A stretch of 64,000 nucleotides of DNA from Cetorhinus maximus (Eukaryota): the NCBI RefSeq assembly GCF_964194155.1, contig NC_135909.1, positions 11,408,001-11,472,000 on the forward strand, given 5' to 3'. The notes beneath the pieces were generated by a model that was given only the letters and a program-made list of their open reading frames with translations, was not told the DNA's origin and did no database searches. Of this stretch, positions 23,501-61,800 are shown in pieces (positions within the stretch are counted from its first letter, which is position 1; each line of letters starts with the position of its first letter). The translations under genes were made by a program, and so were the position numbers.

Positions 23501-24120
23501 CTAGCACGTGGCACTGGCAGTAATCCCGAGATTACTCCTTTTGAGGGCCCACTTTTTAACTACCTCCCTCGCTGCTGGAATTCTGACTGAGGGACCTCAA
23601 TACCTGTCCTCCCCGTGTCAATGATACTGACGTGTACGACAACCTCTGGCTCATTCCCTTCCCCCTGCTGGGTTCTCAGCTAGTTACAATTTATATTAAT
23701 GACTCGGATGAAAGGACAGACCAGACAAAGTTGCTGACAATACATAGATAGGTGGGAAAGGAAGTTGTGAGGAGGACACAGAATCTACAAAACAATATAG
23801 ATATGTTAAGTCAGTGGGAAAAATGTGGCACGTGGACTATACTGTCAGAAAATGTGAGGATTTCCACTTTGGTGGGACAAATAGAAAAGCAGATCATTAT
23901 GTAAATGTGAAGAGATTGCAAAATACTGTGGTTCAGACAGATCCTGGACATGAATCACAAAAAGTTAACATGTAGTTCGAGCAAGTAATTAGGAATGCAA
24001 ATGGATGTTGGTCTTTATTGCAAAGACAATGGAGAATGAAAGCAGAGATGCCTTGCTGCAACTGTACATTGGTGAGACTACAGTTCGAACACTGTGTACA
24101 GCTTTGGTCATTTTGTCGAA
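20600..24120. mobile_element. Nested CR1 fragments (+ ORF2 ~20600-21900; + 5'/ORF1 ~21900-22820; - ORF1/APE ~22850-23670; + RT end ~23670-24120)
   Basis: DGIHPGFLRE, caagtttgctgatg (KFAD), HMCRKCLQLL, ISGDFIVRGTDR motifs. Confidence 0.75.
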
Positions 24121-24124
24121 GGAG

Positions 24125-25311
24125 CAACATATGCCCAACATCGCCATCATTCTGATGGCCAGCTTTGTGTGTGGCTGCATCAAACTGTGCGTAGACCCCC
24201 GGTTCACAAACACCAAGTGTCACTACGTGCAGAGGTTCTACCTGTTGCGAAGGATGGGTCTGGCCACGCTGCCGCGGAACGCTCCAAGTAGTTGGACCGT
24301 GCGGTACCACCTGTCCCTTGTGGAAGAATTTATGCAGAGAAATACTTTTGACCACAAGTCCTTCAGACAGTGGTCGGCACATAATGTCTTAGAGGCCCTG
24401 CGGGAAAAGGAGAGGGTGGATCCTGCCGGGTGGTTCCTCGAGCAGACTGTCAAAGTCATTTGGCAGAATGCCTCATCACCAGAACTTTCCAACAAGCACC
24501 AAGATGTAGCTTGGCTGGTGGTGAGAAAGGCCCTCCCTATCAGATCCTTCCTGCACACCAGGAGTCTCACCCCCTCCGCACACTGCCCTTGAGGTGGCTG
24601 TAGTGGGGAAGAGACCATTGTTCACCTCCTTGTGAAATGTGCCTTTGTGGAAAGTCTGGGGAGAGATGCAGCGGTTTTTGTCGAGGTTCATCCCGAGCAG
24701 TTCTGTGACACAGGACTCTGTGCTCTATGGGCTGTTCCCAGGGACACACACCGAGACAAACATCAACTGCAGCAGGAGGATCATCAACTTGGTAAAAGAT
24801 GCCCTTTGGTCTGCCCGAAAGTTGTTGATCTTCCAGTGCAAAGAGTTGCCCCCGACTGAATGTTGCAGACTGGCACATTCCAAGGTCCAAGACTACGTGC
24901 TGCGGGATGCACTAAAGCTTGGGGCAGCCGCCACAAAGGCGCAATGAGGAAAGGTCACTGTCTATGACCTTTCTGCCATAGTGCACCGAGGGGCTGGGAA
25001 TTGTATAGACCCCTCGGCTGTATGACTCACAAGGAATGTACATAGTGAAAGCTACATGTGTCTCAATTATATTGAAGCACTTCAAAGTGCAACATGTTGT
25101 ATATCGATAACTCCAATACCATTGCACTGTCTGACTGACTGTGATGACTATATTGAAAATACTGTAATGTTCATTGCTGGTATTAATTGCTCCTCGTGAT
25201 CCATGAGGAAAAGTTGAATTTGATTGCACTTTTTGTGATGGCCATTTGGAAATGTTTTGTAATGTTCTTTCAGATATTTTATGAATAAAGTATATTTTTC
25301 CAAAAAAAAAA
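24125..25311 (+). mobile_element. 5'-truncated Tx1/L1-like LINE with poly(A), inserted in a CR1
   Basis: C-terminal zinc knuckle CP*GGCSGEETIVHLLVKC; VKDALWSAR; AATAAA 25284-25289, A10 25302-25311; CR1 sequence resumes afterwards. Confidence 0.75.
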
Positions 25312-31979: not shown

Positions 31980-32590
31980 AATTCTCAGCTCAATCAGGAT
32001 TGCTTAGAAAGGATCATTCTCTGCCATTTCTGCTGACTCCAGCATGATGCCACAACCAAACACATCTTCCCCTCACCCCACTGTCAGAATTCTGTGGGTA
32101 CCTTTCCCTCCGGGACAACCTGGTCCATTCCTCCATCACCCCCAAAACCTCAGCCTCCTCCCACGGCACCTTCCCATGCAAGCGCAGAAGGTGCAACACC
32201 TGCCCCTTTACCTCCGCCCTCCTCACCATCCAAAGGCCCAAACAATCCTTTCAGATGAAGGAGCGCTTCACTTGCACTTCCTTCAATTTGGGCAACTGCG
32301 TTCGCTGCTCCCATTACAGTCTCCTTTACATTGCAGAGACCAAACGTAGGCTGGGTGACCGCTTTGTGGAGCACCTTCAGTCTGTCCACAAGCATGACCC
32401 AGACCTTCCTGTCGCTTGCCATTTTAACATCCCATCCTGCCCTCATGCCCACATGTCCATCCTTGGCCTGCTGCAATGTTCCAGTGAAACCCAACACAAA
32501 CTGAAGGAGCAGCACCTCATCTTCCAAGTAGGCACTTTACAGCCTTCCAGACTTAACATTGAGTTCAGCAACTTCTGACCATGAACTCTC
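31980..32590 (+). mobile_element. Penelope-like element fragment, GIY-YIG endonuclease
   Basis: FTCTSFNL..CVRCSHYSLLYIAETKRRLGDRFVEHL...VACHFN...EQHLIF...LN. Confidence 0.9.
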
Positions 32591-44189: not shown

Positions 44190-45330
44190 TCCACCCTGCT
44201 CTCATGCCCACATGTCCGTCCTTGGCCTGCTGCATTGTTCCAGTGAAGCTCAACACAAACTGGAGGAACAGCAGCTCATCTTCTGACTAGGCACTTTACA
44301 GCCTTCCGGACTGAACATGGAGTTCAACAATTTTAGATCATGAACTCTCTCCTCCATCCCCACCCCCTTTCCGATCCCCCTTTTTTCCAATAATTTTATA
44401 TAGATTTTTCTTTTCCCACCTATTTCCATTATTTTTAAATGTATTTCCATCCATTGTTTTATTTCTACCTTTTAGCCTATTTCGATCCCTTCCTCCCACC
44501 CCACCCCCACCTAGGGCTATCTGTACCTTGCTCGCCCTGCTTTCTACCCTTAATGTCACCAACTAGCACATTCCTTTGATAATATCACCACCTTCAACAC
44601 CTCTTTGTCCTTTTGTCTATCTCCTCCCATCACTGGCCCTCTATCCAGCTCTACTTATCCCAACCCCCCCAACCAGCTTTTATTTCACCTCTTTTCTATT
44701 TTTCCTTAGTTCATTTGAAGAGTCGTACGGACTCGAAACGTTAAGTGTGTTCTTCTCCGCAGATGCTGTCAGACCTGCTGAGCTTTTCCAGGTATTTTTA
44801 TTTTTGTTTTGGATTTCCAGCATCCGCAGTTTTTTGCTTTTATTCAAGGCCTTTCTGTTGTTTGCAGGCCCTTAAGGCTGTGCAAGGTTCATCTGGTAAA
44901 CTTCTACTGCCAATGTGCTTGGAGATTTTAAGTAATTCATTCCCTTTCAATAAGTTCTTAGTGTACCCCTAGATTGCCCCTAATAATTACTGTATCCCTT
45001 TATTTCCCCCTAACATCCCCGTTAGCACATCATTTAGATAATATCACTACCGTCAACACCCCTTTGTCCTTTTGTCTCTGACGTCTTTGGCAATCTCTTC
45101 TTGGCCTCCACCTATCACTGGCCCCCTATCGAGCTCTACCTGCCCCACCCCCTCAACCAGCTTATATTTCAGCTCATTTCTACATTTTTTAGTTCTGATG
45201 AAGGGTCATACGGACTCGAAACGTCAACTGTATCCCTCTCCGCAGATGCTGTCAGACCTGCTGAGTTTTTCCAGGTATTTTTGTTTTTGTTCTAGATTTC
45301 CAGCATCCGCAGTATTTTGCTTTTATCAGA
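44190..45330 (+). mobile_element. Penelope-like 3' end: GIY-YIG C-terminus followed by tandem terminal repeats (~44545-44845 and ~45020-45330)
   Basis: HAHMSVLGLLHCSSEAQHKLEEQQLIF...; two direct copies ending cagcatccgcagt...tgcttttat. Confidence 0.88.
45191..45229 (+). ncRNA. Minimal type I hammerhead ribozyme motif (Penelope type), intact core
   Basis: agtt-CTGATGA-A-GGGTC-atacg-GACTC-GAAA-CGTC-aact: stems I and II pair, palindromic ACGT stem III, GUC cleavage triplet. Confidence 0.85.
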
Positions 45331-45339
45331 AATGTTTAT

Positions 45340-45900
45340 TGTTGCTTTGTGGAGAGAAAGCAGCAATGATTTTCAATAACAGCTTCTTGCCATTCTGTCT
45401 CCCTCCTCCCAGGAGGCTGCTGTTTGTTCCCTTCCCCCGGGAGCGGGATCTCTCCATTGGCGGCTGTTTGAAACCATCTTCTTCCAGTCCCAGGCAGAGC
45501 TGGGGGAGAGCAGCACATCACTGCCTTTAACAAACACTTGGATCTGCACTGAGCTGCTGGGACTGACAGAACTCACGGAGCAAGAGCTGGAAAGTGACGT
45601 GAGGCTGGATCAAACTATTTGGGGGCTGGTGTCGACACGATGGGCCGAATGTCCTCGTTCTGTGCCGGATATGTTCAATATTTGTGTTTCCGGAATGTGT
45701 GCAGCATTCTGCGCATGCGCGCTGCCCTCCCCAGCACTGCCTGTGAGTGGTAGAAGATGGTTTCAAACTGCCGCTAATGCAGAGACACATTTTAAACAGC
45801 GGCTGTTTGCTTTCGCTTGAACGGTTAGTCCATGGGAGCGGCAAATAGAAATCTGACCTACACAATAGTCCCTGCTCCGTCACTCAGTCCCACTCCTGGA
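45340..45900. promoter_or_regulatory. Promoter-like segment with NRF1 site TGCGCATGCGC (45710-45720); related to 7790-8010 and 61140-61800
   Basis: Shared ttcttgccattctgtctccctcctcccag...ggctgctgtttgttcccttcccccggga block and NRF1 motifs. Confidence 0.45.
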
Positions 45901-55533: not shown

Positions 55534-56255
55534 TTCTCGTTCAATTGTTGGGTCTCGTTAATGATGCCCCATAAATTAATGACTTGCCGCTCACCCTCTG
55601 CGCTTTGTTTTAAGACGCGTCATATTCGACCCCTTTCCCTGGTTTTGGAGAGAGAGCGAATAGAACGTAAATGATTCAGTTTCCAATTTGGTTCAAGTTT
55701 GGCCTCCATAATCGATCAGTTCATTTCCTGTAAGCACCGGTTGTGTAGCAACCTTCAGTCTAAACACTGGCAAATTTACTCCAAGTATGTTCAATTTTGG
55801 CTGTCACAAATATCTACAATATACCGTCTATCAGCAGAACGATGTAAATGGCACTTTCAGCCGGCTGCTTAGTAGGTTTCATGACGGATCGAGATTATCT
55901 CGAATTGATGCCGGATTCTTAAAGCGGATCTGGAATTTAGGATAAAATGTGAAATAGTCCCATCAGGGAAGGACATTTGTAAAACTTTGTCATCAGACCG
56001 TGTTCACTATTAACTGGATTTTCTATATGAAATGTATTTCTTGTTTTATAAATATATCGGAGGTAATTTCGATGTCGAATAAAAAACAAACATTCCATAA
56101 GTTTGCGCCGTTATTTTCGACTTGTTTTCAGATACACATAAACCCAGACAGAAAATCAAAAACTGAAATATACAAAAAAATGTAGTCCAGGGAAAGAGAG
56201 AGAGAGAGAGATGAAGTGAATATAACATTCGAATACTAAATACTGAATAACTATT

Positions 56256-56369
56256 TCCAATTAGTACTCGAAACGTCAACTTTGTTCCTCGCCGCAGATG
56301 AATTTTTCCAGGTATTTTTGTTTCAGATTTCCAGGATCACCAGTATTTTGCTTTTATCCAATTAGTACT
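56256..56369 (+). mobile_element. 88 bp Penelope-terminal-repeat insertion with 13 bp TSD
   Basis: TSD tccaattagtact at 56256-56268 and 56357-56369; insert begins cgaaacgtcaact (3' half of the hammerhead). Confidence 0.85.
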
Positions 56370-56404
56370 ATGTTCGTCCGTTTTTTTTTTTGGCTTTTTT
56401 TTTA

Positions 56405-56615
56405 CAAATTTGGCGGGCTTTTAAAATTTGAAAGAAAAATCAGTTGGAATCTCAAAATTTGGCGCCGTAATTTTCCGCCCTCATCCGTAGAGTCTCCGGA
56501 TTGGTGAGTTCAGTAGATATCTGATTGGTGATGTGAACAACATTATGAGATGCAGCAACAAAGTGACCAATCAGCAATGCCCGCAGCACCATTCCTCCCG
56601 AAGCTATAAGAGAAG
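56405..56615 (+). promoter_or_regulatory. H2A promoter: E2F-like TTTGGCGG/TTTGGCGC sites, CCAAT boxes, TATAAG
   Basis: Motifs conserved with the paralogue at 37345-37555. Confidence 0.7.
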
Positions 56616-56659
56616 CGAATGCGAGCGCATTTCCTCATTCTTTGTGAAAGTATTTGTGA

Positions 56660-57061
<402 letters not shown>

Positions 57062-57091
57062 AGCGGCCATTCCTTAATCCAATAACCCAAA

Positions 57092-57132
57092 GGCTCTTTT
57101 CAGAGCCACTCACAGGATCATTGAAAGGGCTG
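57092..57132 (+). terminator. Histone stem-loop (57092-57107) and HDE AAAGGGCTG (57124-57132)
   Basis: GGCTCTTTTCAGAGCC. Confidence 0.95.
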
Positions 57133-57295
57133 CTCACTGTGTGAACTCATTTCATTCTGGCTCTGATGAAGCGTAATGCCGATTCGGGACGGTAACTCTG
57201 TCCCCACACAGATGCTGCCAGACCTGGGGGCGGGGGGAAGCTTTAGGTCATAACACGAGGCGCTGAGGTTCTGAGACTCCAAACGCGCGTCGGCG

Positions 57296-57535
57296 ATGCC
57301 AGTCACAGTGGGACCGTACGGGCAGTCACAGCCCAGCTGCTTTGACAGAGTTAAAATGGGCTTCATGATGGGCTGTGCAGTTGGCATGGCAGCTGGTGCA
57401 CTTTTTGGCAGTTTTTCATGCCTCAGGCTGGGGCTGAGAGGTCGAGAGCTGCTGGGTGGTGTTGGGAAGACCATGATGCAGAGTGGAGGCACGTTTGGAA
57501 CGTTCATGGCGATTGGAATGGGAATCAGATGCTAA
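57296..57535 (+). CDS. ROMO1: Reactive oxygen species modulator 1 (Romo1/Mgr2 family); intact, intronless retrocopy
   Basis: 79 aa [38 protein letters not shown]...[15 protein letters not shown], near-identical to vertebrate ROMO1; ATTAAA 57630-57635 and A10 57655-57664. Confidence 0.93.
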
Positions 57536-58085
57536 CAATCAGTCTTTTCTTTCTGCTGAAATTTCAAGTGTTGCAGATAATGTATGACCTGTCTCTGTCC
57601 CCTTGATTACCAGCTGTATAATAATGGAGATTAAAGTGTATGATTTACTATTGCAAAAAAAAAATTTGGAGAGCAAATGCAGACACGAAAGGAATGAATG
57701 GCCTCCTGTGCTATGCAAATTCTTTTATATTCTATGGTATATATGTGCACCGGAGGGATACACGTTTGTTGCTCAGGGCGTTGCCTTTATTGGGCACTGA
57801 CTTGTAACCCGCAGCTCACCCTTTTCCCGGGATAGTTGTCTGCTCGCAGTATTTAATACATTATCAGCGCCGCCATTTATTGTAAGTATCCTAGAGCACT
57901 AAGGTGACCGCAGTGCCAATTTTCTGTTGAAATTAAGACACCATCTGCGCTACAATTTACAACTGCATCGTCTGTGATTGTCAATCCCACAAAATAGATT
58001 TGTAGAGAACAAAAAATAAACTGTTGCAACTTAGTGAAATGTATCTAAGCAATGTCTAAGTGCTGGATTTGTAAACAGGAGATCG

Positions 58086-58126
58086 CAGCTCTTTCATGTG
58101 TCGATTTAGTGGCTCTTAAAAGAGCC
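58086..58126 (-). terminator. Histone stem-loop (58111-58126) and HDE AAAGAGCTG
   Basis: GGCTCTTTTAAGAGCC on the minus strand. Confidence 0.95.
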
Positions 58127-58156
58127 GTTTGTTGTACTTGGTGCTGAAGCCGGGTT

Positions 58157-58755
<599 letters not shown>

Positions 58756-58829
58756 CTGGCCATTTTCTGAACAGATTCACCACAATGTCAGCTGCAAGAA
58801 CTATTAAGACAAACTGCACTGCAACTCGC

Positions 58830-58950
58830 CTTTTTAAACTCTGTGAGGAACCGCCCCGAACAGTAATTGGCTGCAGCCTTACGCCCAGGCAGTTTTATCC
58901 AAAATCTAACCAATGAACTAATCCCTGGCAACTCAGGTCTCCATTGGTCG
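58830..58950 (-). promoter_or_regulatory. H3 promoter (CCAAT x3, GC box, TTTAAAAA)
   Basis: attgg 58866, ccaat 58910, attgg 58943, ccgcccc 58851; conserved with 13010-13130. Confidence 0.75.
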
Positions 58951-60053
58951 AGTTGTTTTTAATCGCTCATTTGAAAAATTCCGCCTTTATTTCCAGCTGT
59001 TTACCGCCTCGACATCAGAAGACTTTGTTCCTCCATTTTTAAAATTAAAAATTTTCACTGCAAATCATTATTTCCTAACCCGAATGAAATTCCTGTTCAT
59101 TTAACCTATTCCGACAATTTTTAAACCCGGCATCATCCTGGTGAACCTCCACATTTTTGGACAGAAACACCAGTCTGTTGTGTGAACTGTGTACAGTCAG
59201 TGCTGGATTTCGCAGGCAAAAATTGAAGGACTGTCCATTGCTCCCTCCAGCACAACCAAACCTTAAAATCGCCGCTCGCTTCGAGGTCTGGAGTGGGTAA
59301 TAAAATGGAACCGGTGCTGGGGGCTTCAGACCCCTTCCCATTGCCCTCTTTCTGGGCAGATCATGACGATAATGAGCGGGGAAAGGGACCGGCTCGATTC
59401 TCCCGCTGTTCCCGGCCTGACAGATCCCATTTCCTGAAAGGAGATTGACAAATTCAGACTGTTCCTAAAATAGCGCCAAGATTTTGTGACAGGGAGTGCA
59501 ATATAACAGATCATAAAGTGAGAGATTAAAAATTGTTGCCTGAAAATTAAGGTTATCTTGTATATTCCAACAGTGGAATTGGCGGGCTTTTCGAATTCGA
59601 AGAAAAATAAACCAATCATAATTTTCGACCTCATCCACATGACTCTGCGATTGGTTAAGAATTAGACAAAGAAGACGGTGACCAATCAGAGCTAGAGTCC
59701 GGCTCAGACTGCGGGAATTCCAGGTCGCCGAGTGGCTGAGCTGAAACTGTTCAGTTTCCCAAACCCTGTCAGTAACTTCACGAACATACGTGGGAACATT
59801 GAGTTTCGGAGCAGGAGGAGGCCACTCAGCCCTTCGAGACTGATCCTATTCAGTGAAATCATGGATGATCTGATTGTAACCTCAACTCCACTGACGCATT
59901 GAACGGCTGGTGTCACCGAGAATAAAACATTTGGAATATGTGAAGTAGCGGAGAGGCTTTTCAGCGTCAGTGGAGAATGTGCCATCCAGGTTAATAAACA
60001 ACGATTAAATCGAGTTACTTAGCACATCCCCCCGAACCCCGGAACAAATCAGG

Positions 60054-60338: not shown

Positions 60339-60659
<321 letters not shown>

Positions 60660-61139
60660 TCACTCAGATCGCTGCAGAATATGAGACACGAGCTGCTTCA
60701 CGTTCCTCTTTTAAAGAGCCCGCCCCGACGTGACTGAAAAACGCGGTTTGAGAGCAGGGAGGGGAGGAGACAGAGTGAAGATTAAACAGAGAGCGGGAGG
60801 GGGGAGAGAGCCGGAGTGACAGACAGAGAGAGAACAGCCCCTGATCTTTCAGCTCCTCCTCCAGTTTCTGCAACCGCCAATTTCATCCCGTTTATTACCA
60901 ATGGAACCGAGACACAAACCTGGACAGACCCGGGCTTCACAGTCAGGAGTTTCCGCAAACCCGGGGCTTTGAAATATGCTCTCGTTATAATTAACACTCA
61001 GTAATATTCCGACCTAAACACAGTCTATACTAAAACAGGAATCATCCTCAGTAACATCACCATCCTCATACACACACGGTTCCAGCATTTTACAAGCTGT
61101 CTGGGGGAATCTCGGGTTAAAATTGATGTTGTAAAGCGG

Positions 61140-61800
61140 CCTTTACCCACCAGTGTACCCCCGCCACACGTCCACTCGCACCCAACGCCCCTTGCCCCCC
61201 GCGCCGACACAGGTTCGGAGATTTTGTTCTCTCTGTGATGAGATTGAAATGGGGAAAATTCCCATTGATTTTAGCGTTTGAATTGTCGCCGTGGAGTTCT
61301 GCGCATGCGCAGTTTAAACCCTTCCCCGGAGTCGTCACAATGAGGATAAGAGCGCATGCGCAACCCCTCCCCCAACAATGGCCGACAGCGTCATTCACTC
61401 AGTGAGCGGAATAGGGTTTAATTCAGCAGCGATCGGAGACATCACCGCCCCAGAGGGAAGTGAACAAACAGCATCTGCTTAAAGCAGCGCATCGGTTTGG
61501 AGCCGCGTCCGCAGATATGCTCAGAGATTGGCACTGAGTGTCCGGGCAGCTGAGGCGGAGGCGGCGGCTGTTTTTAATGGGCTCCCTGGAACACGAGCTG
61601 CTCCCGGAACATGGAGTGAGCGGGGGGAAGGGAGAGGCCATTCTCGAGCAGTGTCTGGACAGAGTGAGAAGAACTCGCCATTGAAGATCATTGCTGCTTT
61701 CTCTCCCCAAACCCGAGTGAAGCTTCCTGGCTTAGTTCCGGCTCCCACTGTCCCTTGTTATTGGACAGAGAATGGCGGGGGAAATAGCCGCACAGTAACA
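61140..61800. promoter_or_regulatory. CpG-island-like promoter with two NRF1 sites
   Basis: TGCGCATGCGCA 61300-61311, GCGCATGCGCA 61352-61362, YY1-like CAATGGCCG ~61377. Confidence 0.6.

Follow-up and report, generated by a model that had tools for sequence, protein, structure and literature searches.

Processed ROMO1 copy in one H2A-H3 spacer

In a single H2A-H3 spacer of a large histone array, the ROMO1 mRNA is present as a processed copy specific to this lineage, most likely a neutral pseudogene that remains intact only through its youth. The window, i.e., the whole stretch of 64,000 nucleotides analyzed (G000:C32:11408001-11472000), holds H1, H2A, H2B, H3, and H4 genes. The copy and its parts are located as follows.

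57257 to 57664, plus strand: ROMO1 processed retrocopy, recognized by identity to the parent at 399/399 positions, by empty sites, and by the joint in a related species
57257 to 57295 (exon 1, 39 nt), 57296 to 57426 (exon 2), and 57427 to 57655 (exon 3), plus strand: segments of the retrocopy, followed by the A tail
57296 to 57535, plus strand: ROMO1 open reading frame (ORF) of 79 codons, matched by Pfam PF10247
57630 to 57635, plus strand: ATTAAA poly(A) signal, of parental origin as judged by comparison with the parent

The sequence-only reading had described a complete and intronless ROMO1 ORF of 79 codons, and this description was borne out by the intact frame, by the match to the Pfam Romo1 family (E = 1.8e-25), and by the precise removal of both introns. 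A check for an intron-containing parent found an intact gene with three exons and two GT-AG introns on G000:C13 (721888 to 719109). Window positions 57257 to 57655 were identical to its spliced exons, UTRs included, so that the copy showed no private SNP, and both parental introns were missing exactly at the GT-AG junctions. The ATTAAA signal and the A10 tract were both present as claimed, the tract lying at 57655 to 57664, ~20 nt past the signal. At the copy's end point the parent has other bases and no A run, which indicates that the tail is non-templated, and the parent's genomic sequence downstream of the poly(A) signal is missing from the copy. The fallback offered by that reading, a young processed pseudogene, thus agrees with the full identity to an intron-bearing parent and with the empty site in a related species.

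The 164 nt claimed from the H2A downstream element to the start of the copy holds for its ATG, and the retrocopied sequence begins earlier, at 57257. This position lies inside parent exon 1, and the parent's first bases are missing. One older ROMO1 retrocopy extends 29 nt further 5', and a ROMO1 mRNA contig of related organism B, from an RNA-like run, continues into parent exon 1 and not into the H2A spacer. The copy is therefore slightly 5'-truncated and without the parental promoter. The dN/dS ratio between copy and parent is undefined because there are 0 differences, from which neutrality is not demonstrable. Our literature search returned no paper on this ROMO1 copy and none on ROMO1 processed pseudogenes.

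Older ROMO1 retrocopies

A six-frame search of the genome gave 13 ROMO1 matches. One is the window copy, two are exons of the C13 gene, and the remaining 10 belong to seven other loci. These other retro-loci (L002-L006, L008, L010, and L012) were 90 to 97% identical and all decayed, with in-frame stops in six and a loss of 18 coding bases in the seventh. ROMO1 has evidently been retrocopied repeatedly in this genome, and its copies decay. The longest flank word shared at eight other ROMO1 loci examined (seven distinct places) was 6 nt or less, so that no target site duplication (TSD) was seen there, and age may have erased such duplications. Processed pseudogenes in this genome may usually be without TSDs. 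The locus on C5 showed an inverted duplication of its 3' half. Retrocopies have been reported to be common in cartilaginous fishes, amounting to 5.4% of loci, with 95.7% species specific (bioRxiv 10.64898/2026.06.26.734816). The repeat types suggest that the host belongs to this group. Counting the window copy, this retrocopy-rich genome holds at least eight retrocopies of ROMO1, and the window copy, taken alone, is of little import.

Insertion site and empty sister units

Flank searches placed the histone array at ~8.9 to 21.3 Mb of C32, in long, near-identical segmental units of both orientations. We aligned the best 15 of the 41 3'-flank matches listed, the window unit among them, over ~3.4 kb each, and two also at 10 kb. 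The site was empty in 14 of these 15 H2A-H3 units and filled only in the window's unit, which answers the earlier proposal to look into other histone repeat units. Two empty units matched both searched flanks at 100% in the flank search. These two, the nearest sister units, differed from the window unit at 43 of 10,000 and 39 of 9,689 aligned bases; they lie 4.3 and 6.4 Mb away, yet they are ~99.6% identical to it over 10 kb. The filled junction occurred exactly once in the 3.99-Gb assembly. That the filled form has spread to further units of the array was rejected, given this single junction and a single C32 match among the 13 ROMO1 matches.

Comparison with the empty sites showed that 2 to 3 bp of the target (TC or TCA in ACAC-TCA-TTTGG) gave way to the insert and that nothing was duplicated, in agreement with the earlier remark that no TSD is visible. 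The target itself is a repeat remnant, split as follows.

57244 to 57256, plus strand: 5' half of a decayed remnant of a LINE 3' end, into which the copy was inserted, found by alignment with dispersed copies
57664 to 57723, plus strand: 3' half of the LINE 3'-end remnant, found in the same way

The empty-site 18-mer occurred 50 times, 31 times on C32 (a set not verified throughout as histone units) and 19 times elsewhere. All seven dispersed copies fetched aligned to the empty site with 79 to 85% identity over 59 to 78 nt, and an eighth place aligned over 23 nt. These dispersed copies are 3' ends of a LINE, one of them with an RVT_1 ORF upstream; therefore, the ROMO1 sequence was inserted into an old LINE remnant. 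The copy derives from a spliced mRNA and occupies a single filled site.

Identity of 100% to the parent and a single occurrence would also be expected if an assembly artefact or cDNA contamination had put parent mRNA sequence into one histone unit. We regard this as extremely unlikely, however, because the breakpoints are clean, with the small target loss set within otherwise collinear 10-kb units, because five older ROMO1 copies with A tails likewise have no TSD above 6 nt, and because the locus lies in a 24-Mb contig. A filled and empty pair of this kind, with two sisters whose flanks are 100% identical, is usable as a marker of histone-array turnover, and the same pair offers a simple way to ask whether a new retrocopy can be activated by read-through from a histone gene.

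Age of the copy

Four of the 24 sequencing runs listed were compared; the best word share with the window was 0.51, and the two related organisms, A and B, differ at fixed sites, so that none of the four runs appears to come from the species of the window. In organism A, contigs of both runs (2 of 2, one sample) joined 57256 to 57664 via TC, which is the empty form. No filled junction was seen in organism A among the joints and pieces listed, bearing in mind that contigs cannot prove absence, and organism B had no site-bridging contig among those listed. The sister-species check of the earlier reading thus gave an empty site, on contigs of one sample. An orthologue kept under purifying selection in relatives, as expected of a conserved retrogene, was not found, the site in organism A being empty.

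Two positions in the 3'UTR gave a relative date. At 57542 and 57586 the parent and the copy both have G, and organisms A and B both have T at the first position and C at the second. Among six older copies examined, T was found at 57542 in 5 of the 5 aligned there and C at 57586 in 6 of 6. Because parent and copy share G/G and relatives and older copies share T/C, the copy arose after both substitutions in its lineage, and on these sequence comparisons it is lineage specific. The 0 differences in 399 positions allow a divergence of 0.75%, corresponding to an age of less than ~10 million generations at the mutation rate reported for the epaulette shark, 7e-10 per site per generation (PMC10587355). 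The word young is therefore relative for this copy, and the absolute bound is loose.

Spacer features older than the insertion

The earlier reading had placed a hammerhead remnant and a GC box between the H2A gene and the ROMO1 ORF. Homology with the window's other H2A flank ends at ~57140 as described, and the motifs themselves were all present, with CTGATGA at 57163 to 57169, GGGA at 57186 to 57189, and the G-rich box at ~57226 to 57237. The first two belong to the following repeat.

57142 to 57226, plus strand: decayed dispersed repeat with a minimal-hammerhead-like core (CTGATGA...GAAA, changed to GGGA), with a 75% match to window positions 45194 to 45260

The spacer from 57140 to 57256 was found in all 14 empty sister units with 89 to 100% identity, the repeat piece included, which rules out its arrival with the retrocopy. 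The GC box lies at the joint of two repeat remnants, resembles a purine-rich stretch of the LINE repeat, and is also present in the empty units. Both features are evidently repeat debris older than the insertion, and the hammerhead-like remnant has no part in the retrocopy.

Rfam gave no hammerhead hit at E ≤ 10 in window positions 55800 to 59000 and none in 44600 to 45400. The remnant has lost GAAA, and its minimum free energy (MFE) fold is not hammerhead-like. A first look across the genome gave 1017 candidates of this repeat, and better-kept copies lie in the window at 45185 to 45245 and 44700 to 44762. In the copy near 45185 to 45245, CTGATGA and GAAAC are both retained and a helix I may form; Rfam gave no hit. 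A tie between the repeat and a Penelope-type ORF at 32255 to 32578 was rejected, since Pfam was uninformative for this ORF and the repeat does not follow directly behind it.

Read-through and expression of the copy

The histone genes and 3' signals on either side of the copy are as follows.

56669 to 57061, plus strand: histone H2A coding sequence of 130 aa, whose protein is identical in the two nearest sister units
57087 to 57132, plus strand: H2A 3' stem-loop and downstream element, intact (Rfam Histone3, 38.2 bits)
58015 to 58020, plus strand: pre-existing AATAAA, also present in 14/14 empty units
58157 to 58567, minus strand: convergent histone H3 coding sequence, with its stem-loop element at 58086 to 58131 (Rfam Histone3)

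The convergent H3 gene is placed as the earlier reading had it. Downstream of the H2A 3' element the copy follows after 125 nt, and downstream of the H3 element it follows after ~420 nt. That reading had further suggested that the copy could give H2A a new polyadenylated isoform. The score of the H2A 3' element equals that of the window's other H2A, and in each of the 14 empty units a same-strand AATAAA follows the stem-loop of H2A at 519 to 536 nt, with the copy's ATTAAA at 541 nt. Because such a signal was already present ~520 nt behind the stem-loop in every empty unit, the copy adds no new poly(A) option, and the suggested isoform finds no support.

The copy could nevertheless alter the RNA output of its unit without being a gene, either as a stronger poly(A) trap for H2A read-through or as a source of sense and antisense RNA. 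In this second form, convergent read-through from H2A and H3, e.g., in oocytes, would give RNA perfectly complementary to the parent ROMO1 mRNA. Its short distances to both histone elements and its perfect identity to the parent favor such effects, as do reports of histone read-through into downstream DNA in newt and Xenopus oocytes (cited in 10.1101/2024.02.05.577752) and of downstream poly(A) signals used by some human histone genes (PMC5100578). We nevertheless consider the two forms, taken jointly, unlikely, because the equivalent AATAAA is found in the empty units, the stretch from H3 to the copy holds three minus-strand AATAAA or ATTAAA hexamers, the genomic sequence downstream of the parent did not come along, and one unit is affected among at least 15.

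Whether ROMO1 protein could be made from the copy was judged from its leader. H2A and ROMO1 share a reading frame; an in-frame TAA lies 8 codons past the H2A stop and another at 57251 to 57253, ruling out an H2A-ROMO1 fusion through stop read-through. Three AUGs in the spacer (57166, 57176, and 57212) precede the ROMO1 start. Neither weakened U7 processing nor an open frame or clean leader was found, and bicistronic translation of ROMO1 appears unlikely owing to the in-frame stop and the three upstream AUGs, contrary to what had been suggested. A nascent functional retrogene, with ROMO1 translated from a bicistronic RNA shared with H2A or expressed by a promoter in the spacer and so under S-phase control of the histone locus, is favored by the intact ORF and UTRs, by the shared frame, and by the G-rich box ~20 nt upstream of the insert. 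However, the stops bar a fusion protein, the box is equally present in empty units with nothing there to drive, and an intact parent exists alongside decayed older copies, so that we hold this explanation to be very improbable.

Other young insertions in the array

The window's unit carries a second private insertion, close to its H3 gene.

58578 to 58755, minus strand: young SINE-like element of 178 nt, with an 18-bp TSD (58560 to 58577 and 58756 to 58773)

This element was absent from the 14 sister units, and its TSD duplicates the H3 start codon. It puts an out-of-frame upstream ORF of 41 codons before H3, which likely impairs the H3 of the window unit. The SINE family is young and genome-wide, with at least 40 places identical over a 103-nt probe and 962 candidates. 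A shared flank word of 10 to 21 nt was seen in 15 of 30 young SINE copies, unlike the older ROMO1 retro-loci. Strict targeting of histone genes by the SINE was rejected, as 28 of the 30 fetched copies lay away from histone genes and the junction pattern of the SINE with an H2A or H4 start was seen once.

Among the 15 units compared, five private insertions were counted: the H3 SINE, the ROMO1 copy, and three in sister units. The same SINE lies at the H2A ATG in L043/L066 (G000:C32, 16.797 Mb) with an 18-bp TSD, an inverted SINE pair lies ~20 nt into H2B in L061 (C32, 17.84 Mb), and a 1.8-kb 5'-truncated, A-tailed LINE (RVT_1, zf-RVT) was recently inserted ~10 nt before the H3 ATG in L022/L117 (C32, 10.02 Mb) with a ~10-bp TSD. 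A further insertion of ~175 nt upstream of H3, common to three units, was left out of the private count. Four of the five lie within ~25 nt of a histone start codon, which points to a possible hot spot of retro-insertion at histone starts in this array, at a small sample size. Part of the clustering may come from microhomology of the SINE tail with start-codon contexts. A literature search found no paper on a Tx1-type target-specific non-LTR retrotransposon at histone genes, and the concentration of young SINEs and LINEs around the start codons of histone genes may merit separate study.

Other differences were seen in and around this unit. Its H4 (60339 to 60650, minus strand) ends in GFGS instead of GFGG, in common with both nearest sisters. 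A cluster of differences from both sisters at 60344 to 61350 suggests gene conversion. A decayed copy (89%) of the zf-RVT LINE inserted before H3 in L117 lies at window positions 24005 to 25311.

There is a small chance that the ROMO1 copy, through its place behind the H2A 3' end and opposite to H3 read-through, is a retrogene at birth. Histone promoters (e.g., on oocyte lampbrush loops) would then drive either a polyadenylated H2A-ROMO1 transcript or double-stranded RNA acting back on the parent gene, and the copy would be one case of a wider attraction of retro-insertions by active histone genes of the array. A junction-spanning RNA, if found, would represent a route for retrocopies to gain expression without a promoter.

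Proposed origin and comparison with known systems

Under the pseudogene reading, the probable maker of the copy, judging by its A tail, is a LINE reverse transcriptase primed on poly(A) and working in trans. Such machinery has been active in the array, since the A-tailed LINE was recently inserted there. Mammalian L1 products typically have TSDs of 7 to 20 bp and a TT/AAAA-like target. Because the ROMO1 copy has neither an L1-type target nor a TSD, the latter in contrast to the ~10-bp TSD of the array LINE, a different enzyme or route (e.g., capture at a break) may be responsible. Processing at the intact stem-loop would normally end H2A transcripts. Those that occasionally run past it may receive their poly(A) tail at the ATTAAA of the copy, just as the AATAAA could serve in any empty unit, and such RNA would give H2A and little or no ROMO1. 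The copy would be expected to decay like its seven predecessors.

Penelope-like elements are reported to bear minimal hammerheads without helix III (PMC6155905). The dispersed repeat of the spacer is like these in the CTGATGA...GAAA core of its copy near 45190 to 45245. In contrast to them, the remnant at 57142 to 57226 is without GAAA, neither copy was matched by Rfam, and no linked Penelope-like ORF was found.

In polyadenylated replication-dependent histone mRNAs, such as those of human HIST2H2AA3 and HIST1H1C, the poly(A) sites have RNA support and are conserved among mammals. In contrast, the ATTAAA of the copy is a private passenger of the retrocopy, a putative signal, and redundant next to the hexamer that all empty units possess.

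The copy differs from mammalian processed pseudogenes made by L1 in its missing TSD, its 2- to 3-bp target deletion, and its site in a histone-array spacer. It resembles processed pseudogenes of housekeeping genes in its precise intron loss, its poly(A) tail at a pre-existing site on a new chromosome, its separation from the parental promoter, and its restriction to one species.
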